Below are positions 9,101 to 64,000 of a stretch of DNA of 64,000 nucleotides, in pieces. The stretch is from Yuukianura sp. NJ FZ-2021. Its lineage: Eukaryota. Location of the stretch: positions 9,858,001-9,922,000 of the forward strand of contig CM102285.1 of assembly GCA_046563655.1 (NCBI GenBank). Direction: 5' to 3'. Numbering within the stretch: position 1 is the first letter of the stretch; the number at the start of each line of letters is the position of its first letter. The notes beneath the pieces were generated by a model, which saw only the letters and a list, made by a program, of their open reading frames with translations, searched no databases and was not told the DNA's origin. Both the position numbers and the translations under genes were made by a program.

Positions 9101-9635
9101 ATAAATGGGAATTAAGCCACAGAATTTGTTCATTTGCTTTCTAACGATCCCCTTCCGTTTCCTCCCATGTCGTTTAGCTTAGCGATATTAGGCGCCTTTA
9201 ACCTCTTCTAAACTCCGAGTCCAGTTTAGAAGGAAGTGACCTCGGTAATAATTCAGAAATTATTTGGCAGTATAAACTTACAAATGGAGCTGCATTCGGC
9301 CGAACCAAATTCAAGTTTCATGTATTTCCTTAAATATTTGGATGTCGGGAGAGGTGAAAGTGATCGATGGAACCGAAGGGGGAGAAAGTTCTCAAAAGTC
9401 CTTAATTACTCAAGCTTTCCTTTCTACTTCTTTGCATGTCTTTCCGTACCACATTCAGCCCAGAACTTTGTAAATCATGCATGAAATCAACTAATTCATT
9501 AGGTTTTGGAGAGGTTAGGCTTACCTTGAACCCTTTGTACCATTCCTTTATTGTAGCCTCATCGTAGCGTGTATGGGCCTTCAGAAAGTCCAAGTCCTCC
9601 TTTAGCAACTTGTCTTTACTCGTGAAACAGCCCAT
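145..9635 (-). CDS. Neuronal calcium sensor (NCS/recoverin family EF-hand protein; NCS-2 / Drosophila CG7646 type), 188 aa
   Basis: Four coding exons with GT-AG borders: 9635-9525, 5089-4946, 2567-2439, 327-145. Joined protein: [134 protein letters not shown]...[31 protein letters not shown]. It has the N-myristoylation start MG, the CPxG of the inactive EF1 and three canonical EF loops. An acceptor at ~9659 implies upstream non-coding exon(s). Confidence 0.96.
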
Positions 9636-12600
9636 TTTTAGCCTCTGTTTTTGGGTTTCTGGAAAAACATAAAACAAATTACTCATTCTGTCGTAGATTT
9701 TCGGAAGTTTTGAATCATTTTTGTGTGAAAACTATAGTTAAATAAACAGAAATTTTAAATTTCAAGCACAGAAAAGCAAAATTGTGTCAAAAGCAGAATT
9801 TTGAGTAGCCTAATGACACTTTCCTTAGATTAGTTTTAATTCATTTGTCTACAAGGAAATGAAAATGACTAATGTAAATGTTAGTGTTGAAGGACCTGTC
9901 AGAGAGGTTAAAAATTTCACAGGAACAGGCAGAACAAGACGCAGTCGGAAATGACAAGTGAGAAAATTACTTAAAAAGGCAATTTTTCTTCCTTGTGAAA
10001 ATTAACACGGGTATTAAACTCTCTGCAGCTCAATGTCAAAACTTTTTTCAAGAGTCAAAAGCCAAACCCCAGCGTATAGTTTAAATTTGAATTCAAAATG
10101 GAAAGAGCAAGAGACCTGGAAATTTTTTCCCACCACCGAATAAATTTTCTTTGGCTAAGAGAAAGTAAAGATCCCACTTAAGCCCACTTTCTATGGAAAT
10201 TGTTAGGAAATAGAAAAGGAAATGAGCGCAGCCAGACTCTTCAGAGAGAATTTTTAGAACCAACACTATTTTTCCGTACTTCTCTGAAACTAAATTTGAG
10301 ACGGAATAGTGACTTTAGTTAGATGAAAAAGCCTCAAGTCAATGCCTTACTAAATGTAAATTAAATGTGTCATAAATTGTGGGTGGTGATGTAAATGGTT
10401 TCGCACTTGCTTTTGCGTACGCAAACAAAATGACGAACCTACCCGTGCACCGCCTGACAAATTCTTACTCAACTTGTACCTCAAAAATATTAGTTTTTTA
10501 CCCAGAATTAGTTTTTTCACACAATATTAAGCGTCAGTAGTGCATCACTGGACAAAAAAAAAGTTTTTGTCCTTCGCTAGAGGCTAGGCTCGTATTTTAA
10601 GAAGCAAAAAGAAGTTTCCCAACTAAAGTCAAGGCAATTTTTCTCGTTCTCATGCAAAATAATGCTTGCCCACGGTTGATTACAATACAAATTTTCATTT
10701 GCGCAATGAGCAAGAAAAAAGAAACTGTTTTGAGGAAGAACTCTAATCCTAAAATCCTGTTCACTCGAACATTGCATAACTAAACCTAAATTCACGTTGC
10801 AGAAATTTCGAACGCCTAGTCGAATATTACAAAATGTTGAACTTTTTCAGAATCTTTTGGTTTCAGAAAACGAAAATTCTGTTTAGAATCTGGATTTGCA
10901 TGCAAAAACTACGCAGACTTTGACATGTCAGGGTATCAATAATGTTTTTGTGCAGTACTTGCCTGTTGACTGGAAGGAAAAGGAAACAACACAAAATGAA
11001 AAATATTCCACGAGTAAATATTGAGCAACTCTGTTAAATTCACAGACTAATTTCTAATTACAGTATCTGTTCACACGTTCAATGAAACTTCAAAAGTAAA
11101 CAAATAACACTTTTAGCCCAAGTCGGAAGAGTTCTTACAACTGAATTTACAGTTTATAGCACTCCTCGTGACGCCCACCATAGCACTAAAACTCACAAGT
11201 CACTTGAAATTTTGAACTGCACAGCTCTATTCTACCACTTTTAGTATTCTACCTTGTGTCGAGGAAACAACTTTACAAATGGGGAGACCAGAATTGATAG
11301 CTCTATTCATTGTTCCTAAAAGGACAATGAAAAAAATAACGCACTCTATGACCAAACCCAGCACAGGACGACCAACTCCTTTTGCACAAAAAAGTTGTGG
11401 ACGATCCACTTGCTATATCATATCAGTCTCAAGTGTAATAAAAACGCAATGGGAATGACGTAAGGAACAGAAGGAAGCTGTGGACTATGTGGAACCTGTT
11501 AAAAACTAAAAAATTCAGCACTTGCAGCTTTCAACTTGACGTTTTAAGCTTAACCAAATGCAACGGGGAATTCTATGGATATGGATATCAAATTCAGAGA
11601 CTGCCAGCAAGAGAATGAAACTTACTCAATTTCCCTTTATTGGCAATACCCATGAGGTTTCATTCTCATATTACGAAATTTCCTATGCACGATTGTTTGC
11701 AAACATTCATCATTCAATTACAACAACTTGACCTTAATCCTCGTGGCCTTTACAATTCATCATTGTTGTACGAGTGAAAACGTGCTCAAAAATCACTTCA
11801 GTGGAGGAAAAAAACAAATGAAGTGAATATACAAGTTTGAAAACAATCAATTTGTAATTGACTACACTTACACCCACCAAATGTGACACAAACACCTACA
11901 AACCCCATCAATTTGTAATTCATTAATTATAATTTCCAAAACTTCAGGCAAATCACTCAAAAAAAATTACCTTGAACTGTGCCGACACTTCATGCGATTT
12001 TCTTTTGTCTACATTTGGCTTCGGACATCTTTAGTCGGTATTGCCAAAGCCGAGTTTCAATCCACGAAAAGATGAATTTTCAAAATTAAACACACAATTT
12101 GTTGGGCGTTTTGATTTTAATCTTAACATAAACCCCTGAAAGTAAGTTGGCTTTCACCAGTGAAAGTAATAAAGGAAATAGACTAGTGAGTCAAGGAAAC
12201 CGTGGCTTAATGACTAATATGATTAGAAAGGACGTTAAGGAAGACTCCATGTCAAAAGCCCTCCAAGTTAGTAAAGCAGAACAGGTTCAGCCCTGACAAT
12301 CCCCGACGGATCTTGTGGAGTTCCTTATTCTTTGGTTCGATAAGAAGAATGGGAGCCACAGACCATGGTGTGGGTTCTTGTCAATCTCCAAAATAAAGTG
12401 AAAGTAATAGGACTTCCAACCACTGTTACCCACCCTAAAGAAAGTGCTCAAAAGCTACTCCTATCTAGAAACTCTAAAAGTCAAAGTCTCAACTGTTCCA
12501 TAGTCTATGAAATCATAGGCGTTCCAGTCTCCTTCATGTTAGGGTCTAGCACATCCCTATTCAACAAGCTCCAGTGTCACACCAGGATAATAAATCATCG

Positions 12601-27462: not shown

Positions 27463-29151
27463 TTAATCCCGTTCCAATTCAACGTACTCCAGAAGCGAAG
27501 CGATTTCGCGAGCCAGCTTTTCCGAAGCAGCGCAAACTACGCGCCGACTCAGCAGATCAAACGGGCCTCCTGGAATTTCAAATCAATCGGTTAGCAATTT
27601 GAATGTCAGAAGGTTGCTAAGCAATGCTTAGTTTTAGTTAGGTTAGGTTAAGCATGGAAATGGAACTGTTCAAGTTACCAGTGATGTCAATGACACTGCC
27701 GCCAGCTTCCTTGACAATCATTTCCCCGGCACACATGTCCCAAGCATGAACTCCTTGCTCGTAGTAAGCATCAACTGCACCAGAAGCAACAGACGCCATG
27801 TTAAGAGCAGCAGATCCAAGGGCTCTTATACTAAACACACAAATAACAGAACATTAAACACCGAAAAGCAATTTAAAACCCCGAAGTTCCTATGCGCCCG
27901 TGACAGTTCCATTTCCATGCACTCGGAATTCCTTAAGCGTTTAGTTTGTAAAGTGCCCAAGAATTTAAAAACATGCTTAAGGTGCGGTATACCTCCGTAG
28001 TCCAGGAAAGCTCCACCAGCTTCCTTAATAATTACGAGCTTCAAAAATAATAAAACACATAAAAACATAATTACAATTACAATAATTTAGGCTTTTCGAA
28101 ACAAGGAAAACCGAAATTCGGAACACACCGCTGCAGCAGTGTCCCACATATGAAGACCAAAATGGCAAAATGCATCGGCTCCACCACTGGCTATCATTCC
28201 ATAAGCACAAGTTGCTGATCCGAACAGTCGAACGCTAACGATGGGTGTTAATTAAACTTTCACTGGTTAATTGAGTGCATGGAAATGGAATAGTTTGAAT
28301 GGTTTTTGATTAAGAGACAGTTACCCGTGAACTTTGCCAATCAATTTTGTTAGATTGTTCAAAACAACCTTGACACGTTCTGGATCTTTGCTGGAACCCG
28401 CTTCAGAACAAACCAAAGCCTTAGCCAATTCTGGAATGATAAAAGAAAGTTAGAGAAAGTCTTCAAAAATATAAATTTTATAAAATCTTTTGAAATTTCC
28501 AAATTCGACTGAAATGACCATTGCCCTTACCAGTTTCTCCAGAGACTTTGATTGGTTTTCCATTTAGAAACGCTCCATGTCCAATTTTGGCAGTAAACAG
28601 TTGATCCAGCAGTGGATTGTAGATGATTCCAAGCACAGATTCTTTTTTAATAAGGAGTCCAATAGAAATGGCCACCAATGGCAACCCATGGACAAAGTTC
28701 ATGGTGCCATCCACGGGGTCAATGACCCACGTCGGGTCATCGGTCAGTTCACACGGTTGACCTTCCACGGCAGACTCCTCTCCGATAAACCTAAAAGCAA
28801 ATTTTGAATGTTCAATACGCCAGTTAAATTTTGTGTTGTTGAGCTGCACTGGAGAAAGTGGTGAAAGTACTTGTGCGTCGGAAAATGCTCCTTGAGTCCA
28901 CCAATTAACAATTTCTCCACCTCTCGATCTGTTTCAGTGACTAAATCGATATCACATGTTTTGGATTCCACGTTCTTTGCTTTCATTATTGCTGCACCGA
29001 TGATCTACCAAAAGAAAAGAGTTGGCTGAAATTTGAACTGACAATGCAAATTTGACAGTGAAAGTAAATTTAAACTTACTTGACCGCATTCTTTAGTTAG
29101 TCTGATTGCGGTTACGAAATATTTTTGAAGAAGTTCTGATTCAATTGACAT
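27463..29151 (-). CDS. IMPA1: Inositol monophosphatase (IMPA1/2 family), 276 aa, two predicted isoforms
   Basis: Constitutive exons 29151-29080, 29004-28871, 28790-28531, 28430-28325 and last exon 27569-27463, plus either module A (28234-28129 + 28038-27993) or exon B (27830-27679). The CDS is 831 nt either way. Motifs: DLVTETD, FIGEE, WVIDPVDGTMNFVHG, GSA, WD..A...I.KEAGG. Confidence 0.96.
27652..27669 (-). promoter_or_regulatory. Downstream intronic pairing element (intron after IMPase exon B)
   Basis: Plus strand gcatggaaatggaactgt; 18/18 complementary to 27903-27920. It starts at intron position 10 after the exon B donor. Confidence 0.78.
27679..27830 (-). CDS. IMPase alternative exon B (single 152-nt exon, canonical-like sequence)
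   Basis: tttag|T ATA AGA...ACT G|gtaac; encodes IRALGSAALNMASVASGAVDAYYEQGVHAWDMCAGEMIVKEAGGSVIDIT. Same length and phases as module A. Confidence 0.93.
27903..27924 (-). promoter_or_regulatory. Central intronic RNA-pairing element between IMPase module A and exon B
   Basis: Plus strand acagttccatttccatgcactc. 27907-27924 is the exact reverse complement of 28273-28290, and 27903-27920 is the exact reverse complement of 27652-27669. Confidence 0.8.
27993..28234 (-). CDS. IMPase alternative module A (two exons, 106+46 nt)
   Basis: 28234-28129 encodes VRLFGSATCAYGMIASGGADAFCHFGLHMWDTAAA and 28038-27993 encodes LVIIKEAGGAFLDYG. They are separated by a 90-nt GT..AG intron with an in-frame TAA. 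Entry phase 2 and exit phase 1 match the flanking exons, and the module aligns without gaps to exon B. Confidence 0.85.
28273..28290 (-). promoter_or_regulatory. Upstream intronic pairing element (intron before IMPase module A)
   Basis: Plus strand gagtgcatggaaatggaa; 18/18 complementary to 27907-27924. Confidence 0.78.
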
Positions 29152-30092: not shown

Positions 30093-32624
30093 ATGAGATC
30101 GGACACTGAAGAAGAGGAAGGAGAAGAAATCGGAGGAGAAGGAGACTTTGTCACCGAAAACCCAATTGGAGTAAGTCTGGCTTTTATTTCAGGCTTTGCA
30201 AGATTCGTAAAACACTTCAAATCGGTTTACTCAAAATGTTCTATAGAAAAAAATGCAAAGGGAAATTAGCAAATTGAGGTTTCGATTCATCTGATTTTCT
30301 AATCAGGTTATGCGGGTCACGCTTTCACTTCGATTGCGTCTTGGTAGCGTCCTTTGAGGCTTCATGCTGGATTAACACATTTTAAAATCTTTCTAAAACT
30401 AATCTTTCTGAATTTAGGAGTATCACGGCGCTCGTAATGACAAGAATGAGCGTCACGGAAGGGGTCGAGCACTGCTGCCTGGAGGCGACATTTACCTCGG
30501 TTGCTATTACAAGGGTCTCCGTCACGGCCTTGGAATCTACAAGTACGCCAAAGGAAATGGAGCAAGATACGGAGGGGATTGGGTCATGGGTGAAAAGCAT
30601 GGCTGGGGAACAATGTACTATGGTAAGCATTTTCAATTGGTTGACTAATTAAAAAGTTACACTAAATCCGTCACTAAATGTTCGTCTGATTCTAGGCGAT
30701 GGTTCACAGTATACTGGTGAGTTTTGAACTGTTGGGAAGCAAAGTTTTTTGTACTATGAAGTTAACATTGAGGAAATTAATTAACGAAACCTAGGAAATT
30801 GGGAACATAATCAGCGTCATGGTTGGGGAGTTTATGTTTTCCCAAACTGCGATGAATACGAAGGCTGGTGGTATCGCGGAAACCGAAACGGACGTGGGAT
30901 TTATCGTACCCAGAAAACTGGCGAAAAGGTATGAAAACAATTAAATCCATTGAAAATTGAACCTCCATTAGCAGCAGTTGCGATTTTGTAAAAACTTGGA
31001 ACGTATATTTTTACAGTTTGTTGGAGATTGGATTTTGGGAAAGCGAAATGGTCCTGGAATGATAATTCGAGATGCTGAAAAGCACAAATTCATTGGAAAT
31101 TGGTACAACGATGTGGTGAGTTTAAGTATTTTTAATTCCAGGATTCAAAAATTCTCTTATATTCTTATTATTTGTTTTAAATTGAACTCATGAAGCCAAA
31201 AGGTGAAGGGGTATTTGTTTTCGATGAACTTTGCTGCGAACAACATGGACGCTACACTCAAATGAAGATTCCGCCAGAGTCAGAAAAGAAATGGAAGGAC
31301 AATGGATACCAAGTCATTTTGACCAGAGCAGGACCCCCACCATTCAATCCATTCGACGTAGAAAAATTGGAGGGTGAAAAAATAATGGTAAGGAATTGGC
31401 ACTGGATAATTCGAATGATATTTATTCGAATATTCGATATTCGAACGATAATTCGATTAAGTATAGTTTTGAATGTAAATTTCTATTTGAACAGGGTAGC
31501 GTCACGTCCAAAGCGGGAGAAGGTGACGATGGGGAAGGTTCGCGCAAAGGGGGTGGGGAGGATGCTGGAATTTTGCCAAATCCCGTTGAGATGCTGAAGA
31601 GCTACATGAAGCAGTTCGTCGAAGACGAATTCGCGAAAGACAAAGATCAAGTTCGGATTGTTCCAATTTGGCATGCAGTCAAAGTAAAAACCATATTTGT
31701 AATAATTATACTTTTTGAAATTGTTTAAAAAATGCTTGTTGCCTAAAAAATGCCTAAAATGTTGACTGGTTTTACTACAACCAGATTACTCCCATAATGA
31801 CTCCGCTTCCGGATGCCACCGTACCTCCGCCGCCAATTCCTCCGACTCCAGTGCCACCGCCTCTTCCTGAAGTTGAAAATGAAGTAATTCCAATACATTT
31901 TGGTTCAGTATTGCTGCAGTATTTATACTAGTTCGTTCTACTCTTTTAGGTTGAAGATGAAGAAGAGGAAGCCGAGGCTGAGGTAGCCGATCCTTATGCA
32001 GCCGCAAGACTTCTGGCGCAAACGCACGCGTTGGGTCCCGTCTACCACGGCCAAGGCGTCTGTCAGGACCACGAAGTGGCTCTAAAACTTCCGAAATCCG
32101 AGGAGCCATATGAACGATTTTCGCAGCTAAGTTTGACTCGTTTGGACAATATGAGGGACGTACTGGAAACTTGCGGCGGACAACTTCAGCCACTTGATTT
32201 GGAGGAAGTCAAGAAGCAAGCCACGTAAGAATTGGATTTAAAAATATTTCTGATCATTTTAATAAAATTCAGAAAGTTTTTCCTAAACGCGTTTAAATTT
32301 TGTTGGAACAGAATGAAAGGTTTGGACATGGCTACACGCTGGAGAGAATGCCTCAATCAGGATCCGAGTTGTCAGAATCCAGAAGCAGTTCCTCCGCCAA
32401 CCGAGGGCGGTAGAAGTACTTCGCAGACGTTGAACAGCAAAGATGGCCGTGCTTCAACTGGGTATGCACCGGATAATGATACTGAGCACACAGTAACTGA
32501 ACCAGAGGAAACGGATGCCTCTTATGTAAGAACACAACCAATTTTGTCAACTTCATGGATCAATTTGATTGGTGCATGATTTGATTAATCTCTGTTTCAG
32601 ACGACTGAAGAAGAGCAAGGCTAA
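30093..32624 (+). CDS. RSPH1: Radial spoke head protein 1-like MORN-repeat protein with a long Pro-rich/acidic C-terminal extension
   Basis: About 11 exons (30093-30170, 30418-30622, 30696-30716, 30795-30928, 31017-31115, 31196-31387, 31495-31683, 31785-31883, 31950-32225, 32312-32525, 32601-32624). An acidic N-terminus is followed by [45 protein letters not shown]...[33 protein letters not shown]...[13 protein letters not shown], matching the RSPH1 MORN array and EQHG motif. The 3' exons are less certain. Confidence 0.88.
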
Positions 32625-33874
32625 GCATACAAAAAATACGATGGATTTTGTTGGTGAACAGCGAAACAGCTCTAAATAAGACTACAAATCATTTCAACAA
32701 AAGACTGACCATTTAATTTCCACCAGTTACTTAAAAAAAAACAAACTTTCATTAAACTATGCAAATAGCATGATCTCTCATTTTGACATTAGTTTTGATG
32801 CATCGATTTACCAAAGTGCGAAAATAACGATAATTTTAGTGAAATGCCATGTAAAAGTTAATGAAAATTTGCTTAGGTATTAATTCACTAAATTCATGCG
32901 TATAAATAAATTTATTTCGTTTGACTTGCAAATGCGGAAAAAAACAAAACACTTTTGTGACAAAAATTTTGTCAAGCCTCACAAAATTCCAATTTTCTAA
33001 AACTCCAGACTTCGGAATTGAAAATGTTATAAAATAATGAATCATGGGTTTAGTTTCTGTCTTTGATACCTTAATTGAATTTTTAGAGCAACCCTATGAA
33101 CTTTGACCAAGTTTAGAAATTGGAATTTAAAAAATTCTGAAAAGAAGACTAAAATTTTCATTGTCGCAACTCGCAAATCAGACGCCAGCATAAAATAAAG
33201 AAATATTTTCGTAGATTTGAATTTTTATAAACCTAGGCTGATTTGTTTAATCTTTGAAGTGGCGTCGAGATACCACAACAAAAAACTCAAAATTGCTCTT
33301 CAATTTCGAATTTCGAACTAAACTTTTTAAAGACCCTTTTAAATAACGTTAACTCAAGTGATAATTGTACTTCTTACAATAAAAATAACAATAAACACAT
33401 TCTAGATTCACTTTTCACCAATTTCTAACAGTAGAGTAAAAATTTTAAGTTTCACAAGCTTCTCGGATAGCTTCTGACACCTCGCGGATACGTTTGGAAC
33501 TGATCCAACTTCTCTTCCTTTTGTCATAACAGAAATCAGCTGATGCTGTTTTTTTTTACTTGGTTGGACGTTGTACTACACATTTAATTGTTCATCACCA
33601 TCACCAATAACAATTAAATTGTGTTCATCAACGTTTTGGATCTGGTCAACTGTCAACTAAATAAAGGTCAGTAAGCTCCCCGTTTTAACTTTGGTGATAG
33701 TTGTTCTCTTGCTAGTTAGCCAGTGCTCATCCCGCTAGCAAAGATAGCTACTATACTAGTGTTCCGGCTTTTTGGAAAGGATGATAATACATTGTTTTTA
33801 GTTTACCATCAACATTGCATTTTTTTTATTTGCATGAGTCAATTTAGTTACTATTTTCTAGGTAATTCACCACC

Positions 33875-36800
33875 ATGGAGTTACCTCCTATTGTACCAAG
33901 TATTCAAACGATTCTGGAATCTGCGTGCTCACATCCAGAAGACCTGGAGATCTATAATATCCAACATAACTTGGAACTTATTGATGTCGAGCGAGATTCC
34001 TACGCCCTTCGAAAACACCATATTACTCAGCTTCCATTGACGCAGGAGGTAGTTTCTTTGTGTGCAATTTAATTATGAAGTAATGAAGGGTTGCGATGAG
34101 ATGAACATTAAGAAGTTTCATTTCATTGGCATTTGTTTCAGTTCAAACGTGATCCAGCCACTGGTCAGCGCTTGTGCAATGTTCTCCTTGAAACAAGTAC
34201 ATTCCAAGAAACGTCCAAGACTTCCTATTCGCTCAACCGAATTCCAGGTCCAAGGAATGAAGGTGTGAAGGGGAGCTCTACAAATCTTCCATTTTTGCCG
34301 GCTGGATTAGAAATCCCGGAAAACAAGTGTGTGTCTGCTTTGCTGGCAAATTTGGATCTCAATGAAGCGATCTCGGATACCAAAGAAGCTGAATTATTTG
34401 CAGAGCTTTTCGATAAAGGTAACTGTCGTTTCTTGCTTCTACATTTGCACCCACAAAAATTGGAGGTCCTTTTCACTCATTTTATTTCAACTGTTGGATC
34501 TGATTTACAGATAGATTGAAGATAATTCCGGGCGAGTCACCGTTTGAAGTCGTATTTGAACAAGGGAATGGTTTCAACAGTAGCCCAAAGCTGTCTGCGT
34601 TGTCTGTATTTACGGTTAGTACTTATTTACGAATCGCGTACTGGTATGGTATAATGTGCTTATAATATTAATTTAATCATTTTTTGTTACTAAACTCTTT
34701 TCAACAGGAAAGCGAGGAGCAACACTTCGATTTTTGGCAAGGTCAGGAAAAGGTAGACATAAAAGACGAAAGACGGCTGGCTAATAAGGAGGCTAGAAAG
34801 GAAAGAAGCCTTACACATTTGTTACGAGAATTGAATGAAAATCCGAACGCAAATAGTCTCGAAGCCAACGATGATGTATGAAACAATATGTGCAACGTAC
34901 TCACTCACTACTCATAAACATATTAGACACCTTATATACGTTTGTTTTTGGCTAGGTTGAATTCAAAGCTCCTGTTCTGGCAATTAGCAAAAGCTCTGGA
35001 GTACTCAAATCGACCAAATTACCTTGGGCAGAATCCGTTGATATAACAAAACCAATGACGGACTTCGAGGAAAGGGTACCCGACATGGCCTTCAAATTCG
35101 ACTTTACTTTGGACGAATTTCAGAAACAGGTTTGATTTTTATTCTTGTGATAACCTTTTCCTTTGAAATCGTGACAACATTTATTTGTAACTTATTTATA
35201 TTTTCAGTCAATTGCTTTACTTGAGGAACATGAAAACGTGTTCGTAGCAGCACATACTTCCGCCGGTAAAACCGTTGTGGCTGAATATGCCATCGCTCTC
35301 TCCGTGAGACACATGACCAGGTCTTGAATTAAATATCTTGAATGCAAGTTTAGTTTCAACATTTTGTGATTAAGATCGCCTCAACATGAAAGTGGACTGA
35401 TTCATTTGCAGAGCAATTTACACTTCGCCTATCAAGGCTCTCTCTAATCAGAAGTTTCGTGACTTTAAAAAGTGCTTCGAAAGCGTTGGACTTGTTACAG
35501 GCGATGTTCAAATCAACCAAAGCGCATCCTGTCTCATAATGACAACTGAGATATTGCGTTCCATGCTCTACAACGGATCCGACATCATCAGGGATCTGGA
35601 GTGGGTCATATTTGACGAAATACACTACCTGAATAACCTCGAGGTAGGACTGAATATGATGTTTCATCAAAAGGAATTCCTCGTTCAACATTTATTAAAC
35701 TTCGTTTTAGCGAGGTCATGTGTGGGAAGAGGTGCTCATTATGCTTCCGCAACACGTCAGTATCATCATGTTGAGCGCCACGGTACCAAACGCACTTCAA
35801 TTTGCCAATTGGGTGGGAGGAATTAAGAAGAAGAAAATTTATGTTGTGTCAACATCCAAGCGTCCAGTTCCACTTGAGCACTTCCTGTATACTGGCACTG
35901 GTGGGAAGAGTAAGGCAGATCAGTTCTTGGTGCTTGGAGCCGATAGTAAATTCCTAAAGCACGGGTATGTCATTTCATTTACTATTTGGGAAATTCGGAA
36001 CTGTTTTATGAACTTTCTTAATTATCTGTGTACAGATATGATGCCGCTCGACAGTCGCTGGCAGAACGACAATCGTCGTTTCAGAAAAATACTGGACCTA
36101 AGAACGGTAGCCAACGTATTGGATTCAATGAAAAGTCTGAAAAGAACACCTACATCGGATTGATAGATCACTTGAAAAAGACGGTAAGGTTATATATAAG
36201 GTCAATCACGTAAAGGAACATACAATTACAAACTTTCTCTTTCCATTCCAGGACAAACTGCCTGTTGTAATCTTCACTTTCTCGAGGAATAGGTGCGACA
36301 ATTACGCCAACATGTTGGAGTCGGTTGACTTATGCAGTGGTGCTCAAAAGGGAGAAATTCATGGATTTTTCAAAACCAGTATTTCGAAGTTGACAGGGTC
36401 AGATAGAGAGCTTCCACAGGTAAGAATTTGCTACCCAGTAATACAATAGTACATTGAATTGCTAGTATTGATTTCATAGTCAATCGACAGTATCTAACCG
36501 ATTTTGGGCAATTTCAGGTCCTTGCATTTGAAAAAATGCTGAAAAACGGAATTGGTGTTCATCACAGTGGCATCCTTCCAATTTTGAAGGAAGTTGTAGA
36601 GATGCTGTTTCAAAAGGGTTTGGTGAAGGTACATAAACATAATGAATTAACTTAACTTAAATTACTCGAATATTTGCAACTTACTGACGTGATTTTTTTC
36701 CTCAGTTGCTGTTTGCCACGGAGACTTTCGCAATGGGCGTTAACATGCCTGCTCGAACCGTCGTCTTTGACAGTTGTCGAAAACATGATGGCTTTACTTT

Positions 36801-38893
36801 CCGCAATTTACTACCGGCAGAATATATTCAGATGGCTGGACGAGCCGGCCGACGTGGAAAAGACACTACAGGAACCGTCATCATTCTATGTAAGCAAGGC
36901 GTTCCGGATTGCATGGAATTGAAAGACATGATGACTGGAACGGCTGCCAAATTGGAATCACAGTTTCGCCTAACGTACAGTATGATTCTCAACCTCCTTC
37001 GAGTTGAGAGCATCACTGTGGAGGATGTCATGAAACGAAGTTTCTTAGAAGCAGGAAAACTGACGAAAATTGAAGACATGAGGGAAGATCGTAAGAAAGT
37101 TCAAGAGAAGCTTGACGTATTGGAAACGAAGACTTGGAATCAGGGTCTGATTGACTTCTATGTTCGTGTAGTAAACTTCATTCGATTTCATGACTCCATT
37201 ATGGTGAGTTTACAAGAAACATTTATGAATCTACTTAGCAGTTTTTATCATACTTATCAGTCGTATATGGTCATTATTATCACAGAACCAGATTGTTATC
37301 CAAACAAAAGTCATTGAAGCCATGAAACCAGGCAGGATTGTTATCCTTGAAATGCTTCCCAAGTACACTGCTCGATTTGGTATTCTGATCAATTCACATG
37401 CTGCAAAGGATCCTGTCACGGGACAATTTGTCAAGAGATACAAAATTCTTATTCTAACACGACCTAAAGACGGAACTGGCGAATACACGGAAATGTTTAC
37501 GCGAATAAGTCGTGATCTCCAAGCTCCAACGAGCGAAGCTAATAATGTACTTTTTCATCGCATGATGTACTTTTCACATGAAAGTATGATAAACTTTGAG
37601 CCAGAAATTTCTGAATACGGTTATCCGTATTTCACCATACTATCGGACGTCGCACCAGGAAATATCATTGAACTAGTGGAAGGAGAATTCATTTCAGTTG
37701 ACGCAGCGTCTACTGAGCGAAGCATCATTGGACAAGTGCCCAGAGTTCGGTAAGCTAAGGAGTGTTTTTATGTTACCTGTTACTATATAATTCGTCTCTT
37801 CAGAATGATTTCCAACTGTTTTTGTTTCAGCGACCCAAAGTTGCCACCAAATGTTCGCGAAACTGTGTCAAAACTCTACGACTTACACAATGCGGAAATT
37901 GGTCAAACCAAAAACCTGAGATTTGCAAATCTCTTTGCGATGACGCCAATGCGAAATGGCGAGTTGGCAGATGCTGTTCAAACTTACATGGAGATGAAAT
38001 TACATCTCAAAAACGAGAATATCTTCACCGCAACGTCCTCATCACCGGAAACTGTAAGTTCAACTACGGAAGCAACAATTTTAACAAGTTGAACCAGTTT
38101 TCTCTGTTTAGTTTGTGGAAGTTTTCCACTACATGGGACTGGTGGAACAGCGAGACCTCATTGACTTTGCGATGTCACCAAAAAGTCTCCAGCTTCATGA
38201 GGAATATCAGCAACGTATTGAAGTTCTACGGAGAATGCAATTTATAGACAATCAGTGCTTGGGTAATATTTACTATATTTTAAACAAAAAGGCTCCGGAT
38301 GCCCTCAGTTGACATTTTAAGGCCTAAGTGCAAACGGAGCTTTCTTCTTATTTGCAGTACTGCTAAAGGGACGTGTAGCCTGTGAAATGGGTAACCAGAA
38401 CGAGTTGATGATGACAGAACTACTTCTGAATAACACAGTGGAAGATTGTACTCCCGAAGAAATTGCAGCCCTGTTTTCGTGTATGGTGTTTGAAGCTAAG
38501 CGTATTCCAGAACCAGAGCTCAATGCTCCCGACGTCCATCATCTGAGAGACAAAGTCGCTGAAATCAAGAAAGTGGCAACAGAAATTGCCACAATCCAAA
38601 TGGAATGCAAGCTAAAGGAACCTATCTCACAGTATGTGGAACAATTCAAATTTGGTCTGGTGGAAGTGGTCTACGAATGGGCCAAGGGAAAACCATTTTC
38701 AGAAATTATGCGACTGACAGAAGTTCAAGAGGGACTCATTGTGCGGACGATTCAGCGATTAGATGAAATGATCCGAGATGTCAAAGATTCAGCCAGGATC
38801 ATTGGCGATCCTTCGCTGAAAAAGAAAATGGAAGAAGCTTCGCAATGTATCAAGCGAGACATTGTCTTTGCAGCGAGTTTGTACACCCAGTAA
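33875..38893 (+). CDS. SKIV2L: Ski2/SKIV2L (SKIC2, Drosophila twister) DExH RNA helicase of the cytoplasmic exosome Ski complex
   Basis: About 16 coding exons. Motifs: [105 protein letters not shown], and the DSHCT end [14 protein letters not shown]. The N-terminal [16 protein letters not shown] Ski2_N motif argues for Ski2 rather than Mtr4. Confidence 0.96.
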
Positions 38894-40010: not shown

Positions 40011-43000
40011 ATGGAGATGGCGTCGTCGCTGAAAAATAAATCTAATCAACAGTACCTGTATTCGGCACCACGCTCCACAGAATATTTACGAAATATCCGC
40101 TTATCGTCAAATGGTCCATTCGGTAATCTTCCATTTAAGCCGGTTTCCAATTCTGCAGATGGTGAAAGATTCATCAGTTTGGTTGAACATAAGAAATCGA
40201 GAATTCAAACCTCCGGAAGACGGTTAGAAATGATATAACTTTCGTATGTGCTTTAGGTATAATAAACGTTGTTTTGTTGTTATAACCTTTATCGTGCTTT
40301 CAGAGATGGACCAATCTTGTTCTCGCGTGTGAAAGATTTTCTCAAGGAATCTACACATCACTCACATCATAAATTCATTGAAGCAGACTGTGACAAATTC
40401 TATTCCATTGCCAGAGAATTCACCGCTTTGGCCGAACTTCCTGGCGGTACTCAAGGAGGTGCTGATGAAGTAGGAATTATGATTCTCCATCTTTTTTTGA
40501 GTAACACTGATCCTAGTCCTAGAAATCCAGTTTCATCAGGAAAGTCAACTGCTAACCAGAAGCAAACGTCCGCTCTCAAACAATACTTTGGAGTGGTAGA
40601 GTCTAATCTAATCACTGCGGCTGCGCAAAGTTTTAATGCTCTCATACAATGGGTTGAACCGGATCAACGGCGTGAGTTAGCAAAGAAGGTAAGTCTTTGG
40701 AAGGACGGAAACATTGACGACTCTTCCGGTGATGATTCCAGTCTATTTCCATTCGGACGTATGAAATTCACAGAAAGTATACCGAGTACAGAAGATTCAG
40801 AACTATTCGACCATTCCGTAGCAAGACTGCTTCCACTTCGAGACACTGCCGCTTCTACCAAAGGAAGTTCGCAGCAAGATCACCTGTCTGAAGAAGATAG
40901 GAAAATATTTGCGCTGTTTGCGGCTTCTGATGATTCGGAGCCAACGCCTGGCCCTTCTTCCGCTCCAACAAGACCTACTTCTTCTGTATCAGCAACAAAA
41001 GGAATCGCCTGGGATCGAACCTATCTGCTCAACATGATTGGAAATGAAGATATTCTACAAGCCTTACTTACAATTGTCAACTCCAACAAATCAAACGATG
41101 AGATTCAAGACCAACTCTTTGATCTACTTGGATTTGAAAGGATTGACCTCATCTCCAATATTCTGAGTAATCGGCAAACAATCAACAAAAATTTGAAACA
41201 AGAAGAGGCCATGACTTTAGCACAGAAAAATAGGGTCGTATCATTAAATTCGACACAATCACATCCAGTACTTGGAGTCACTATTCAATCAGCTGAGGAC
41301 AAAGTCATGGATAAAATGTACCGGAAAGCCGAGAAGAAAGCTAAAAATGCCGCTTCGATGTTGTGCGATTCATTTGCAATTTCCGAAACTCTTGAAGACA
41401 CTCAATCAAATGCAAACCAAAAGGTCGACAATTCATTTCGATCTGCTGTTAGACCTAATGGCCTCACCCTAAACTTGGATAGTCCAAACGTCTACGACAG
41501 TTTCGCAGAAATTAAGCAGAAGGCTGGATTTATTTCGGGACAGAAAATTGTTTTGTCTGATAATATGATACGAAAGACAACTTCCAGTTACGAAGAAATC
41601 AGTATTCCTGCAGAAGTAAAACAAGTTCCGAGGAATGCGCTGAATAAAGAGCTCATCAAGATTTCTGCCTTGGATGCTGTTGCACAAGAAGTTTTCAGAG
41701 GAATGACGAACCTGAACAGAATTCAAACTCTAGTCTTTGAAACTGCTTACAAAACAAATGAGAACTTACTCGTCTGTGCTCCTACCGGTAATAAACAGAT
41801 TATTTATTTTTGCAAACTTAAAACCTAACTTAACATATGTAATTTGTAATCTTTAGGTGCTGGAAAAACTAATATAGCCCTTCTATCGATACTTCAATGC
41901 ATTAGGAGCAACACCGAGCACGGAGTAATAATGAGAGACCAATTTAAGGTACGTTTTAAGTGATGTGAATTTTCAAATTGATGGGAAACTATTTAAATAC
42001 GACTTAAATTGTGTTTTTTTTCTTGTTACAGATTGTGTATGTTGCACCGATGAAGGCTCTTGCTGCAGAAATGACTGCCAACTTCTCCAAGAGATTAGCG
42101 ACATTGGGAGTTTCAGTACGAGAGTTGACAGGGGATATGCAATTGACAAAAACGGAAATCACACAGACTCAGATGCTGGTAACAACACCGGAGAAGTGGG
42201 ATGTTGTTACACGGAAGTCTACTGGAGATGTTGCACTGGCTCAAATTGTCAAACTACTCATTATCGATGAAGTCCATTTACTTCACGGAGATCGCGGGCC
42301 CGTTGTTGAATCCCTTGTTGCTAGAACCCTGCGACAGGTAAGCAGTCTAAAACGTCTCTATCTCAATGCCGGCCCCAAACTTACAAAACTGAAACATATT
42401 GTGTTGCAATTGTATCGTTTTATTGAAATATCTTAGGTGGAGTCATCACAAAGAATGATTAGAATTGTCGGTCTTTCAGCTACGTTACCCAATTACCGAG
42501 ACGTCGCGATTTTTCTTCGGGTGAATCTAAGAGTAGGCCTCTTTTATTTCGATTCACGATTTCGTCCAGTTCCATTGGGTCAAACATTCGTGGGTGTCAA
42601 GGGTCTAAGTATTTTGGATCAACAACGACAAATGGACCAGTGTTGTTATGAAAAAGTTTATGAAATGGTTTCAAAAGGACACCAGGTAACAGTATACATA
42701 TAATAATATTATAGTTAAGATAGAATCCTGTTTTTGAAAGACATTTTTTGAGGATCCTACACTTAAGCTAACAACATTTCTTTTCGAAGGAAAATTAATT
42801 CAGTTTTCATTTTCAGGTCATGGTATTCGTACATGCGAGAAATGCCACCGTGAAAACGGCGGAAATCATGATTGAAATCGCTTCAAAAGCAGGTCAGCTG
42901 GAAACTTTTTTGATGAAAAAGTCATCTGACGAGTCTCGTGGTGATTATGGAAAGGCAATGAAATCCTTCGAAAAATCACGTAACAAAAAATTGCCCGAAT

Positions 43001-46000
43001 TATTTCAAAAAGGATTCTCTGTTCATCATGCTGGACTTCTCAGGGCTGATCGGTTAGTTTAAATAGATTCGGATCATTTCCCTTACCAAACAAAACTCGT
43101 CTGATGAAGAAAACACTCCAAAACGTTTTGTCAAAGTATTTTCTTTTTTGCTTTATTTGCAGGAATATAGTGGAGAAATTGTTCGCTGACGGATTTATTC
43201 GTGTCTTAGTTTGCACCGCGACGCTTGCTTGGGGTGTCAATCTACCGGCGCACGCTGTAATTATCAAGGTATAAGCTACTATTTACTATTTTAGTTTATT
43301 GTCCCATAACAAAACTAGGATAAATTATTACACATTCATCTCAAAATATTGATTTGGTGTTACTATTTCTGATTTTTAGGGGACTGAGATTTATGACTCG
43401 AAGCAAGGTACCTTTGTCGATTTGGGGATTTTGGATGTTTTGCAAATCTTTGGCCGAGCTGGACGACCGCAATTTGACAAAGAGGGTCACGGTACCATTA
43501 TCACCACTCATGACAAGCTTGCACATTACCTTTCATTGCTTACCAACCAAATCCCGATTGAGAGCAACTTTATCAAGTTCCTGACGGACAACCTGAATGC
43601 TGAGGTGTTTATTTTGTTTGCAAAGTATTATGAATGAATTATATTGATTTGGTTTTTAAATAATTTTGCAGATTTCATTGGGATCTATCTCAAATGTGAA
43701 CGAAGCAATGGACTGGTTGACTTACACTTACTTGTACGTCCGAATGCGACGTAATCCAACTTTATACGGACTACCCTATACGGCTGTTGAAGAAGATCCA
43801 GTATTAACGTTTCGAAGAAAAGAACTCATCGTCGAAGCTGCCAAAAGCTTGGAGCAAGCTCAAATGATTCGATTTGATGAACGAACGGAATATTTATATT
43901 CAACTGGTGAGAGAAAACACAAAAACGTCAAAGAATTGACATACACGATACGATACATTTTTATTTTGTCTTAGATTTGGGAAGGACTGCAAGTAACTAC
44001 TACATCAAATACGACACGGTTCAAGTATTCAACGAGATCTTGCATCCCATCATGGGTAGAGACGCCATTTTGATGATGATATCCAAAGCCACCGAATTTG
44101 AGCAGCTAAAAGTCCGAGATGAAGAACTGGACGAGTTGGACGATCTTTCACGTGAATACTGCAACCTCAAAGTTTGGGGTGGAGCAGAAAATATTCATGG
44201 GAAAGTCAGTATCCTAATCCAAACGTACATTTCCAGAGCCTTTGTAAAATCATTCTCCCTCATGTCAGATATGCAGTATGTTACGCAGGTAAGTGATAAT
44301 TTATTAGTTGGTTAGTTAGTTAGTAATCGTTTAAGTATGTGCAAGATGAAGGTAACAATTTTCGACTGTTTTTGAACTTTCAGAACTCAGCGAGAATTTG
44401 TCGTGGGTTTTTCGAAATTGTTTTGAGACAAGGAAATCCAATTCTTGCAGGAAGGCTTCTGGAGTTTTGCAAAATGCTGGATCAGCAACAATGGGACACT
44501 GCTCATCCTCTGAGGCAGCATCCTCATTTATCACCGGAAATTTTGCAAAAACTGGAAAACGGGAAAATGACAATGGACTTCCTGAGAGAGACTCCTGCTG
44601 ATGAAATTGGCGCTTTGCTGCGACATCCAAAAATGGGACCAACAGTGAAAAAGTGTGCCGAAGAAATGCCAAATCTTGAAGTTGACGTTTTAACCCAACC
44701 GATCACTCGAACGGTACTGCGTCTAACGATTTCCATAATGCCAAATTTCCGGTAAGTTTAATCTACACGAAATTAACTTTAGCTATAAAACAAAAGTCTT
44801 GTTTTAAAGTACGTTTTTGGTAAAATACATTCAAGATGGAATGATCGACTGCACGGAAACGTTTCCGAGGGTTTTTGGATTTGGGTAGAAGATCCTGAGA
44901 CGAACTCCATGTATCATAATGAGTATTTCCTCATCACCAAGCGTCAAGTAATTGAGATGATGCCGAATATATTCTTTCTTTGTATTTGGATGTATATAAA
45001 AAGCCGTATCGACTGCCATTTTGTTTCAGGTTTTGAAGCAAGAACGACAAGAAGTAATTTTTACGATACCGATCTCGGATCCACTTCCCACGCAGTACTT
45101 GGTCAGAATCGTTTCAGACCGATTTCTCGGCTCGACTCAAATAATCCCAGTTTCATTCCAGCATCTCATTCTTCCGGAACAGCATCCGCCACACACCAAT
45201 CTTCTTGACTTAGATCCACTCCCAATTACAGCGTTGAGAGATACGCGTTTCGAACTGCTCTATCGATTCCAATTCTTCAATCCAATCCAAACACAAATAT
45301 TCCACTCTCTGTACCATACAGATTCAAACGTTTTAGTTGGTGCTCCGACTGGTTCTGGAAAGACAATCGCTGCAGAATTGGCGATGCTGCGAGTATTCCG
45401 TGTTTACCCGGGGTCAAAGGTAACAATGAGTTGAATCTGTATAATGTTCTCAATATTCGCGTCTTCATTTTCTTAAATTCCGGTTTTAGGTCGTTTACAT
45501 TGCTCCACTCAAAGCGCTGGTTCGAGAACGAATTACGGATTGGAAACAGCGTCTTCAAGGTCGACTGGGAAAGAAAGTTGTGGAACTCACAGGAGATGTG
45601 ACTCCAGACGTTCGAGCGATTTCAGAAGCTGATGTTATTGTTACAACTCCTGAGAAATGGGATGGTATTAGCCGAAGTTGGCAAACCAGAACGTATGTTC
45701 AGGTAAGCACATAAATTCTTAGAATATTAATAGCAGAAAAGTTTGCTTAAAAAGTGGAAACTTCATTAATGTTTCTCCTCTCAGGCCGTGGCTCTCATAG
45801 TTATTGACGAGATTCATCTGTTGGGTGAAGATCGGGGTCCCGTTTTGGAAGTGATCGTGTCAAGAACGAACTTCATCAGTCAGTATACCGAGAAGAAGTT
45901 GAGAGTTGTAGGGCTTTCCACTGCCCTGGCAAATGCTCGGGATTTGGCTGATTGGTTAGGAATCAAAGGCTTCGAGGGACTTTTCAACTTCCGTCCGTCA

Positions 46001-48448
46001 TGCCGTCCAGTGCCAATTCAAGTTCATATCTCTGGGTTTCCTGGAAAACACTACTGTCCGCGGATGGCCACTATGAACAAACCCGCATATCAAGTACGAA
46101 ATTGTGGTGTTTTGCACATAAGTTTTATGAATAATCGATTTTGTTTGAAATTTTAGGCTATTCGAGAGCATTCTCCTGCGAAACCAGTGTTGATTTTCGT
46201 ATCTTCACGACGGCAAACTCGATTGACAGCGTTGGATTTGATTGCCTACCTTGCAGGAGATGGAAATCCGAAGCAATGGCTGCACATGGACGAACAGGAA
46301 ATTGATTACATAATTCAAGGTGTCAAGGAATCCAACTTGAGATTAACGCTTTCTTTTGGAATCGGGATTCACCATGCTGGTTTGCAGGAAAATGACAGAA
46401 AAGTCGTCGAAGAATTATTCGTGAATCAAAAAATCCAGGTTAGTAGAAAGCCATTATAATTTTTGCATTAGATCTAGAAGCAGCTACAACAACTACCAGT
46501 TACTTTTCTAATTGATTTTTTTTACTTAGGTGTTAATTGCTACAGCTACTTTGGCCTGGGGTGTGAATTTTCCAGCACATTTAGTTGTAATCAAAGGAAC
46601 TGAATACTATGACGGAAAAACTCATCGATATGTGGACATGCCAATAACAGATGTATTGCAAATGATGGGAAGAGCTGGTCGGCCGCAATTCGATACTGAA
46701 GGAGTGGCTGTGGTTTTAGTTCATGATCAAAAGAAAAACTTCTACAAGAAGTTCCTTTACGAACCATTCCCGGTGGAGAGTTCCTTACTGGAAGTCCTTC
46801 CCGACCACTTGAATGCAGAAGTTGTTGCTGGAACGATCACGACTAATCAGGAAGCACTTAATTACCTAACGTGCACTTACTTCTTCCGAAGACTCTTACA
46901 AAATCCATCGTATTACCATCTCGAGTCAAGTGAGCCTGCCGATGTCAACAAACACCTTTCAAACCTAGTTTCAAGTGCCTTCCAAGTCCTCGAGCGTGCC
47001 TCTTGTATCTACATTCACGATGTAAGGAATTGCATAACACCTTAGCTTTAAAGATTCTTATACATGTGAATTCCTAAGTTTGTGTTTATGATATTTTAAT
47101 TTATAGGATCTCAGAACTGTTGAGCCAACTTCCTTTGGGAGGATCGCAGCTTACTACTATTTGTCACACCAGACGATGCGACACTTCCGTGACTGCCTAG
47201 GCCCAAATTATAGTTTAGAAGATTTGCTGAATGTTTTGACTCTTGTGAATGAATACGCCCAACTTCCAGTTCGACACAATGAAGACTTGCTCAATGAAGA
47301 ATTGGCAAAGGACTGCCCAATTGAAGTTGCTGCTGGCACCTACAATTCACCTCATACGAAAACCCATTTGTTACTTCAGTGTCATTTCTCCAGACTTCAG
47401 TTGCCAAGTTCAGATTACTATACTGACTTGAAATCAGTGTTGGACCAAGCACTTCGAATACTCCAAGCGATGATTGATGCTTGTGCGGAGAACGGATGGC
47501 TATTACAAACACTCAGATGCATCCACTTAATTCAAATGGTTGTGCAAGGTCGATGGCTAGAAGATGATGCGTTCATGGCGTTGCCATTTGTTGATGAAAT
47601 GGGAGCCGCAGCACTCGCGAAGAAGTTCAAGGTCGATACAATTCCGCAGTTACAATTGCTGACGAAGAAAAACTCCATGGATATGCAGCAGGTTCTTATG
47701 CCACTCCTTGAAGATCCCAATCAGTTTCAACTGGTAAGGTTTTAACTAAACTCTGGTCGTGAATGACCTTCGACCTTCGCAAACAACAAACTTAAATTAT
47801 GAAACCGTTTTAATTAATTTTTCTTCCACAGATTTACAAAACGCTGCAAGAAATACCTGTGATAACGTTAAAATTGGTCTTGGAGGTTGGTGGCGAGAAG
47901 ATTTCATTGCCAATCAGTGAAGGCTCTCAGCGTTTGTGGGTCAATGTTCCAAAGGAGAAAGAAATGGCGCTGATTTTGCACTTGACTAGAGAAAATTCCT
48001 TTCCGAAAGACATGAAAGTCTTTGCCCCAAAGTTTTCTAAGGTACTTAATTTGACCATTGCTAGAGATTAATTATTTTTTATTGCGAACCTATGGATTTC
48101 TATCTCTTTATGGTTGGAATTTCTTGACAAACATGTTCAAATGTTTACTTTTGTTTACTTCAGGTCAAGGAGGAAGGTTGGTTCATTGTGTTGGGTGACC
48201 TAGAGAAAAGAGAAGTGATTGCATTGAAAAGGAGTGGTGGTATCAAGAGAACTTTGTCACAGCAGTTGAAACTTGAGCCTGTCACGTCTCCTGGTAAACC
48301 CTGATACATTCTTTCAAGTGAACTTTAAAGTGATTTTTAATTGTTGTTTGAAATTCTTTCAGGTCGTGTGATTTACAATTTGTACCTTATGTCAGACGCT
48401 TACCTCGGTGTTGACTATCAGTATGAACTGTCCTTGAACTTTGTCTAA
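40011..48448 (+). CDS. ASCC3: Activating signal cointegrator 1 complex subunit 3 (ASCC3/Slh1), tandem Ski2-like helicase with two Sec63 domains
   Basis: About 21 coding exons. Cassette 1: [57 protein letters not shown]. Cassette 2: [51 protein letters not shown]. It ends [22 protein letters not shown]. The intact second cassette and the KHYCPRM signature distinguish it from BRR2. The start codon is less certain; a probable 5' UTR exon ends at ~39684. Confidence 0.96.
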
Positions 48449-62824: not shown

Positions 62825-64000
62825 ATGGGAAAAAAGAAGGGAAAGTCAGGCGGAAAGAAAGGGAGGAAAGTCGTTGATGGGATTTCAACGGCGGAGATGT
62901 CACGCGAACAACTGCTGGGTCATATCAAGCGTCTCCAGGTATTCAACATAGCAAGTATTGTACTACTTTTAAAAACTTATTGAAAATTATGCTAAAATTA
63001 CTGCCAATTTTATTTAAAACTAGAGTGAAATTGATCGCGAACGTGAGGAACGGAATTTCTTTATGCTTGAAAGAGAAAAACTATTTTCCTTATGGAGCTT
63101 GGCACTGGAGAAAATCAACGAAGAAAAAGACAAAGCCCGGCTAAGAGAGATACATCTCGACGATGTAAAAAATTGTTAATTTGCCTATTCAAAGTAATTA
63201 ACCATCTTGATTTAACTCAATATTAGTTATTTACCATAGGTTCGTGAAAGTAAAGAGGAAGACATGAAGTTGCAGAAACAGAAGGTTCGGTATCTTATGT
63301 CTGAGCAATTGAAGAAACTGGGTGAAACGCGTCTTGATTACTTGTACCGAATAAGAGATCATCAAATTGAATTCGGAAAAGTAGAGGCCACTTTAAGAGA
63401 GAAAGTACAAGAGGTCAAAAGTGAAGCCAGTACAACAAGAGCATGTCTTTTCCAAACAGTTCGAGACTTACAGATTCAAAAAATACAAGACGTCTCAATT
63501 GTCCGAAGAGACTATGCATCAGAAATCCGTCGATTGGAAGTTGAATCTGACTTGAGAGTGGTCAAATGTCGAGACAGATTTGAGCTCGAGTCGAAACAAG
63601 ATCTGATTCAGCTCCAAATTATCAAGGACGAACAAATTCATCAGTTGATCCAAGTTCATGCAGAACAGTTGAATCAGTTGAAAGACTACTACAATGACAT
63701 CATAACTAACAACTTAGCACTGATTACTACGCTTCGGGATGAACTTGCAGAAAGTAAATCAAGAGAGGCAAAGGTTAGTTCTGAATTGGAACGTTGTAAG
63801 GTCAACAAGCAACAATTTAAAGAGAAAGTTCAGCAATTGGAACTCAAGATGGTAGAATGGACAGAAGAAGAAAAGAAAACGGCTTCTAGAATTACCCAGG
63901 TCCAAAGAATGGACAAGAAAGTGAGACATCTAAACGTTTCCTGCTGATCTGTTTCAAAAATTTTGAAAAAAGAAAATTGGCTAATCTTTGTTTCAGGTTA
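62825..64000 (+). CDS. GAS8: GAS8/DRC4-like paralog 2 (5' part; continues beyond the window)
   Basis: Exons 62825-62938, ~63024-63164, ~63240-63920, with the next acceptor at ~63996. MGKKKGKSGGKKGRKVVDGISTAEMSREQLLGHIKRLQSEIDREREERNFFMLEREK...KQKVRYLMSE...LKDYYNDIITNNLALITTL matches GAS8 hallmarks. Confidence 0.9.

Follow-up and report, generated by a model that had tools for sequence, protein, structure and literature searches.

The DNA analysed here (the window) is a stretch of 64,000 nucleotides from the springtail Yuukianura sp. NJ FZ-2021, located on contig CM102285.1 of assembly GCA_046563655.1, and coordinates below refer to it unless another locus is named. Its minus strand carries an inositol monophosphatase (IMPase) gene at 29151-27463. 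The neighbouring genes, recognized by their Pfam domains, are as follows.

145-9731, minus strand: EF-hand calcium-sensor gene (Pfam EF-hand), spread over about 10 kb
30420-32630, plus strand: MORN-repeat gene (Pfam MORN), divergent from the IMPase gene
35401-38893, plus strand: SKI2-type RNA helicase (Pfam Helicase_C, DSHCT)
40266-47745, plus strand: ASCC3/SNRNP200-type RNA helicase (Pfam), adjoining the SKI2-type gene
57579-59183, plus strand: BTB/POZ gene (Pfam BTB_2)
61039-62392 and 63240-63947, plus strand: two GAS8/DRC4-like coiled-coil genes (Pfam GAS)

We take the EF-hand gene to be of the neurocalcin/hippocalcin type, and the BTB/POZ gene is presumably of the KCTD1/15 type. The two GAS8/DRC4-like genes apparently arose by tandem duplication.

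The model of the IMPase gene consists of four shared exons followed by A1, A2, B, and a last shared exon, with GT-AG intron borders throughout. Its parts and the putative regulatory elements in its introns, all on the minus strand, are listed in the order of transcription.

29080..29151, minus: coding exon 1, 72 nt, start codon at 29151 (gene model)
28871..29004, minus: shared exon 2, 134 nt (gene model)
28531..28790, minus: shared exon 3, 260 nt, with the equivalents of the metal and phosphate ligands Glu70, Asp90, Asp93 and Thr95 (roles from excerpts of PMC4954947 and PMC2080633)
28325..28430, minus: shared exon 4, 106 nt (gene model)
28273..28290, minus: upstream selector, 18/18 pairing with the docking site, which would loop out module A
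28129..28234, minus: exon A1 of module A, 106 nt, with His (28162-28164) at the position of Glu213 and His217, Trp219 and Asp220 retained
28039..28128, minus: intron inside module A, 90 nt, phase 0, missing in the three other springtail genomic A exons (3/3; loci L001, L002, L004)
27993..28038, minus: exon A2 of module A, 46 nt (gene model)
27903..27924, minus: docking site in the A-B intron, 22 nt, able to pair with either flank but not with both at once
27679..27830, minus: module B, 152 nt, with the Glu213 equivalent at 27758-27760
27652..27669, minus: downstream selector, 18/18 pairing with the docking site, which would loop out module B
27463..27569, minus: last shared coding exon, 107 nt including the stop codon (gene model)

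The two parts of module A (106 and 46 nt) add up to exactly the 152 nt of module B, so that the modules agree in length and frame and either one yields a protein of 276 aa. All six other combinations (A and B together, neither, A1 with B, A2 with B, A1 alone, A2 alone) run into a premature stop after 192-242 aa. The modules are homologous, with 21 of 50 amino acids identical, and encode residues 192-241 of the protein, corresponding to 190-239 in the numbering of human IMPA1. The two isoforms differ only in these ~50 residues and are 92% identical overall. The springtail IMPase gene contains a tandemly duplicated exon whose copies are predicted to be spliced in a mutually exclusive manner. Exon A1 by itself exceeds the cut-off of the Pfam Inositol_P family (PF00459) with 32.9 bits against 27, which argues that module A is not a chance reading. 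A homology search with A1 and its in-frame flanks found no match among 3 candidates, and a search of the ESM Atlas returned generic IMPase clusters only. The interval 28129..28234 given for module A in the original prediction holds A1, while the remainder of the module lies in A2 (28038-27993); the A and B peptides quoted there are indeed read at 28129-28233 and 27680-27829 on the minus strand.

The catalytic residues are divided between the shared exons and the swapped module. The metal ligands named in excerpts of PMC4954947, Glu70, Asp90, Asp93 and Asp220, are all present in both window isoforms, the first three contributed by shared exon 3 and Asp220 by whichever module is used; the same excerpts place the His217-Asp220 stretch next to metal site II. 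According to passages of Brown et al. (2007, PMC2080633), Glu213 forms hydrogen bonds with the C3 and C4 hydroxyls of inositol, and Glu213 and Asp93 are the only side-chain contacts that determine specificity. These passages also describe residue 213 as Glu or Gln in enzymes specific for Ins-1-P and as Asp, His, Ser or Thr in less restricted enzymes. Isoform B, with Glu at 213, agrees with the pattern of inositol-specific IMPA1-type enzymes, and isoform A, with His, departs from it. The attention paid to Glu213 in the original prediction was therefore well placed, and its IMPA1 numbering fits our HMMER alignment to chain 1ima_A (residues 191-224). Its further statement that the modules exchange the substrate-binding pocket holds for Glu213 but goes too far, since the other substrate contacts named in excerpts of PMC2080633 (Asp93, Gly94/Thr95, and the beta9-alpha6 loop) are encoded on shared exons and the swap covers just part of the pocket.

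Both isoforms belong to the IMPase family by a wide margin, the A and B isoforms of the springtail Folsomia candida scoring 261.5 and 275.9 bits, respectively, against PF00459 (cut-off 27). Modelled with AlphaFold2, isoform A of Folsomia (pLDDT 94.9) has the five-layer alpha/beta sandwich fold and superposes on human IMPA1 with a TM score of 0.96 and an rmsd of 0.9 Å; as the alignment behind the model consists mostly of Glu-type rows, the good model indicates compatibility with the fold, not activity. Among solved structures, B is closest to IMPA1 (54.4-51.5 bits, compared to 48.9 for IMPA2), in keeping with its description as the canonical form, whereas the best match for A is IMPA2 (30.2 bits, compared to 23.0 for IMPA1). 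A profile of five A exons likewise scores higher with IMPA2 (67.9 bits) than with IMPA1 (62.7 bits). The view of A as a conserved, foldable variant that keeps Trp219 and Asp220, with the other metal ligands on shared exons, is upheld. Passages of PMC2080633 include strand beta10 and the beta10-alpha7 and alpha7-beta11 loops in the dimer interface, and these elements appear to fall within the swapped module; heterodimers of A and B are thus possible but not automatic and cannot be assumed.

We searched for related genes with shared exon 3 (595 matches among 1405 candidates, the best 120 of 595 being listed) and by protein-cluster look-ups, and a metagenome scan yielded 418 relatives among 600 stretches, of which 78 loci were kept (designated by L numbers). 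In the representative search, the highest-ranking match (P0142) was discarded as spurious, being a repeat protein from bacteria; the other 6 of 7 matches are IMPases. In Folsomia candida, RefSeq contains an isoform X1 with Glu (automatically named IMPA1) and an isoform X2 with His (automatically named IMPA2), both 273 aa long and different only in the module. Gene models from Allacma fusca, Orchesella cincta and Folsomia join A and then B in a single protein, a protein from Orchesella dallaii carries the A form, and a further A/B pair (P0006/P0133) comes from JGI. Among springtail-type metagenome loci, L001 and L002 contain A followed by B, L004 has A at the end of its contig, and L003 is an intronless A sequence. 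Both isoforms are thus known as spliced sequences from springtail relatives, A being represented by the Folsomia X2 isoform, the JGI pair and L003 (RefSeq X1 and X2 are models). Module A forms a single 152-nt exon in L001, L002 and L004, and from this comparison the intron that splits it in the window was probably gained in the window's lineage.

Module A, like module B, is conserved across springtails. The springtail A modules form one clade in every module tree, with support of 100/100 (63 rows), 100/99 (49 rows) and 100/98 (52 rows), and the clade spans Symphypleona and Entomobryomorpha. In a backbone tree built without the module, the window gene lies inside Collembola (SH-aLRT 95), nearest to Allacma and two further proteins. 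All 10 pairwise comparisons among the five A exons give lower pN (0.17-0.30) than pS (0.58-0.83). By these substitution patterns and their open frames, the five springtail A exons for which DNA is available are all under purifying selection, and A has not decayed. The 12 springtail A rows (11 distinct, P0144 being the L001 exon) share an invariant signature, F211-C212-H213-x-G215 together with Y238, and most have Ala199 (11 of 12) and Cys198 (10 of 12). The ATCAY that the original prediction noted in place of AALNM is mostly specific to this species; the general features are the signature and, in most cases, Ala199. The A modules have a mean identity of 68%, compared to 76% for B, and sit on a longer branch.

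The introns around the modules suggest how one exon might be chosen over the other. The docking site can form either of two 18/18 helices, with the upstream selector (28273-28290) or with the downstream selector (27652-27669), and the two helices have 14 nt of the site in common. For each of them, none of 60 shuffled sequences produced a helix as strong, and the upstream helix is present in both the minimum free energy and the centroid folds, although the 761-nt region as a whole folds no better than its shuffles (z -0.88). A helix between the middle and downstream introns, of similar strength and unrelated sequence, occurs in both other complete springtail loci, L001 and L002 (0/60 shuffles each); the upstream helix in these loci does not rise above shuffles (55/60 and 32/60 as strong). 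In L004, the upstream intron contains, at 713-745, a motif that resembles the upstream selector of the window, and the contig ends before the partner intron. The donor sites of A are non-consensus in the window, L001, L002 and L004, and weaker than those of B.

On the strength of these predicted pairings, the exon is probably chosen by competing intronic RNA helices. Pairing of the docking site with the upstream intron would hide A and lead to the use of B, pairing with the downstream intron would hide B and lead to the use of A, and nonsense-mediated decay would eliminate wrongly spliced transcripts. We infer that B may be the default and the downstream helix a conserved device for admitting A. 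The locus would also represent a compact three-element RNA switch. The L038 introns show no pairing above shuffles. In the L038 intron upstream of the Gln module, 15 nt match the downstream selector of the window (1479-1496); this match is located inside an apparent repeated element, and no pairing partner for it was found in L038. The 10-nt selector core occurs in 3 of 78 loci, including L030, which has no second module. We treat both the recurrence of the core and the L038 match as unexplained or due to chance.

The same exon is duplicated in other animals. RefSeq contains X1/X2 pairs of equal length that differ solely in the module in three amphioxus species (Glu/Gln) and in the prawn Palaemon (Glu/His), and gene models of the isopod Armadillidium and the annelid Paralvinella carry both modules in tandem (Gln then Glu and Thr then Glu, respectively). 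At least two copies of the module are present in 5 of the 78 metagenome loci (L001, L002, L038, L029, L028). L038 has a Gln copy followed by a Glu copy. The annelid-like L028 has five tandem in-frame copies at 677-3382 (155, 161, 161, 152 and 152 nt), with the Glu copy last and three copies more divergent, with insertions near position 213; the related L029 has three copies, one broken by a stop. In both L028 and L038, the exon preceding the array has its closest relative in Paralvinella. The duplication is not universal, as the available DNA of L071, L075 and L076 contains a single module, and among the insect and cladoceran (Daphnia) matches listed only a single Glu-type module was seen for this gene.

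We compiled 15 pairs of modules (7 springtail, 2 malacostracan, 3 annelid-like and 3 amphioxus, L028 being represented by its last two copies). In all 15 pairs, which cover four lineages, Glu213 is present in one copy and His, Gln or Thr in the other; two of the searches, including the metagenome scan, used non-Glu modules as bait and were therefore biased towards pairs of this kind. The non-Glu copies retain Trp219 and Asp220 in 15 of 15 cases and His217 in 14, whereas Asn199 is present in only 1 of 15, compared with 12 of 15 Glu copies. Where the order can be seen, the non-Glu copy is first in 10 of 10 cases (5 DNA loci and 5 gene models, from three lineages only).

Substitutions and insertions around position 213 were also seen elsewhere in the family. 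The His-type module of decapods (P0219, P0258) has His217 changed to Cys as well. Additional IMPase genes or forms of amphioxus carry His or insertions at 213 (P0021, P0030, P0038, P0057), and a second hymenopteran type of IMPase has an insertion immediately following position 213 (P0005, P0080, P0111, P0116-P0117, P0122-P0124). In ray-finned fish, His213 occurs in IMPA1-like paralogs that fall into at least two groups (P0143, P0145, P0173-P0180, P0184-P0209), and fused gene models from sturgeon and wrasse show a His gene adjoining a Glu gene.

The history of the duplication was investigated with four module trees: 63 rows; 37 of those without column 213; 49 rows without the fish His rows and with column 213 kept; and 52 rows that include the fish His rows but neither column 213 nor the three divergent L028 copies. 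IMPA2 is represented in them by one row (shark P0206). In the 63-row tree, the springtail B modules are placed with those of insects and Daphnia (84/87), in which case A would predate the springtails, yet a springtail-only duplication is not rejected by the AU test (p = 0.42 with 37 rows and 0.34 with 52). Springtail A is sister to shark IMPA2 in the 49-row tree (99/88), falls among the fish His paralogs in the 63-row tree, and is unplaced in the 52-row tree; A and IMPA2 do not group in the 63-, 37- or 52-row trees. With only 49-50 columns, the AU tests reject no hypothesis (p = 0.20-0.42), including a single clade of invertebrate non-Glu modules (0.30), vertebrate monophyly (0.20), and A with IMPA2 in the 52-row set (0.38). 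The backbone tree unites IMPA1, IMPA2 and the His genes of fish in one clade of vertebrates (96) and nests the His genes within IMPA1 (94), so that the change from Glu to His has arisen more than once; IMPA2 is placed with IMPA1 and the window gene in Collembola (95), so the window gene as a whole does not group with IMPA2. The Gln isoform of amphioxus is no closer to IMPA2 (313.6 bits) than its Glu isoform (316.5 bits). Module A resembles IMPA2 in sequence, but 50 columns cannot separate a single ancient origin from repeated duplication, and tandem-exon events are often convergent according to an excerpt of PMC9741552.

One scenario, which we regard as possible but doubtful, is that the ancestral bilaterian IMPase gene contained two exons used in a mutually exclusive manner, the first of the non-Glu and the second of the Glu type, that both were kept in springtails, malacostracans, annelids and amphioxus, that the Glu exon alone was kept in most insects, and that in vertebrates the two were split into IMPA1 (Glu) and IMPA2 (Gln). 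It draws on the duplication of the same exon in four lineages, the constant order of the copies, and the one tree that joins springtail A with IMPA2; the instability of this grouping, the amphioxus Gln form, and the independent change from Glu to His in fish speak against it. If the scenario is true, the isoform pairs of invertebrates are natural same-backbone chimeras that isolate the difference between IMPA2 and IMPA1, and they could reveal the physiological substrate of IMPA2.

As to function, isoform B would be the Mg2+-dependent, Li+-sensitive myo-inositol monophosphatase of the phosphoinositide cycle. For isoform A we favour, with a fair degree of confidence, the reading that it is an active phosphatase with a loosened grip on inositol and a relaxed or shifted preference among sugar phosphates. 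Its metal centre appears intact, while Glu213, which grips the inositol hydroxyls OH3 and OH4, is replaced by His and Asn199 usually by Ala; such an enzyme should still hydrolyse phosphomonoesters, with less preference for, and lower efficiency on, myo-inositol-1/3-phosphate relative to other sugar or polyol phosphates. A may thereby play a role held in vertebrates by separate paralogs, IMPA2 with Gln and the IMPA1-like genes of fish with His. The change may be one of ratios only, as standard IMPases already hydrolyse galactose-1-P, glucose-1-P and others (excerpt of PMC12599262). Two points count against relaxed specificity: the correlation with His, Ser or Thr at 213 in the available passages of PMC2080633 comes from distant prokaryotic enzymes with a shorter beta9-alpha6 loop, unlike the springtail isoforms, in which this loop is unchanged, and the same passages class Gln213, the residue of the amphioxus and isopod variants, with inositol-specific enzymes. 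It is also conceivable, if rather unlikely, that A accepts essentially the same substrates as B and that the two differ in regulation alone (by pH, Mg2+, Li+ or ionic strength), for example if A made bulk myo-inositol as an osmolyte in drought while B served signalling. Folsomia candida shifts its myo-inositol levels under drought (PMC4494283), pH and Na+ tune one of the IMPase paralogs of tilapia (PMC4466255), and the swapped His217-Asp220 stretch adjoins metal site II (PMC4954947, in part). The salt-induced tilapia IMPase 1, however, appears to be of the Glu213 type: the ends encoded by its cloning primers (PMC4466255, supplement S5) match the Glu-type fish group, its residue being inferred from that clade, which removes the osmolyte parallel, and loss of the Glu213 contacts should reduce affinity for Ins(3)P, the MIPS product. 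For the same reason we rejected the idea that the His form is the salt-induced fish IMPase (IMPA1.1), whose primer-encoded ends match neither of the two His-type groups.

The longer branch and lower conservation of the A modules, the additional loss of His217 in decapod variants, and the three divergent copies with insertions near 213 in L028 could be taken to mean that A is a weak or silent enzyme with a regulatory job, either damping B in heterodimers or acting as a scaffold. We consider this improbable: the retention of Asp220 and Trp219 in every non-Glu copy of the 15 pairs and the invariant His213 of springtails argue for a positive catalytic role, and excerpts of PMC2080633 locate dimer-interface elements within the swapped segment. 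The non-consensus A donors and the single Glu-type modules among the insect and cladoceran matches listed might raise the suspicion that A is a duplicate in decay, or an exon seldom used and without function at the protein level. This reading is largely refuted and hardly credible in view of the open frames and purifying selection in 5/5 springtail A exons, the extent of the A clade over Symphypleona and Entomobryomorpha, and the existence of spliced A sequences; a dedicated RNA helix would favour A as well. Human IMPA1 and IMPA2 reportedly do not heterodimerise, a result attributed to Ohnishi in 2007, which counts against the damping of B by A.

The two springtail isoforms parallel human IMPA1 and IMPA2 (PF00459; PDB 1IMA, 2CZH) in fold and metal ligands, B resembling IMPA1 (Glu213, Asn199) and A resembling IMPA2 best (Gln213, Ala199), but they are splice products of a single gene that share the same backbone, and A has His rather than Gln. 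The fish IMPA1-like paralogs share the change from Glu to His at 213; unlike the springtail exons, they are whole-gene duplicates nested in vertebrate IMPA1 (94), in which His arose separately. Among tandem exon swaps, PKM1/PKM2 and KHK-A/C are known in enzymes. Excerpts of PMC9741552 describe substitutions of tandem duplicated exons that fine-tune a protein on a fixed backbone, with convergent origins known. Another analogy is provided by the selectivity-filter exons of NALCN, where alternative exons likewise swap a residue that determines specificity; according to Senatore 2013 (PMC3557258), these alternatives are found widely among the invertebrate bilaterians, while vertebrates have settled on a single form. 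NALCN is an ion channel, whereas IMPase is an enzyme of which vertebrates keep both residue types in separate genes. The RNA arrangement recalls the bidirectional pairing of srp and the docking and selector sequences of Dscam, 14-3-3zeta and Mhc, where upstream and downstream pairings each loop out one alternative (PMC4691838 and PMC6071210, in part). According to an excerpt of PMC4691838, srp uses two separate pairs that exclude each other through a pseudoknot; the IMPase locus differs in having one central site for both flanks, in direct competition, and one alternative split by an intron.

A full-text search that covered few subscription papers and was judged from its listings returned no published description of mutually exclusive splicing in IMPase, and RefSeq already carries the X1/X2 isoforms without comment. 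What is new here is the duplication of the same IMPase exon in decapods, an isopod, annelid-like loci and amphioxus as well as in springtails, and with it an enzyme presumably tuned in four animal lineages by a tandem-exon swap at the residue that recognizes inositol. IMPase performs the last step of inositol synthesis and recycling and is a proposed target of lithium. To our knowledge, the invertebrate IMPase has usually been treated as an enzyme of one form. Our results describe a splice switch that exchanges the residue in contact with the inositol ring; it is conserved among springtails and recurs in crustaceans, in amphioxus, and in annelid-like worms, where as many as five copies occur. 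Be it by common descent or by repeated origin, animals have time and again kept an IMPase without Glu213 beside the standard form. This points to a substrate or a regulatory demand that has gone unrecognised, and isoform pairs that differ in only ~50 residues make the role of A and the questions surrounding IMPA2 directly testable.
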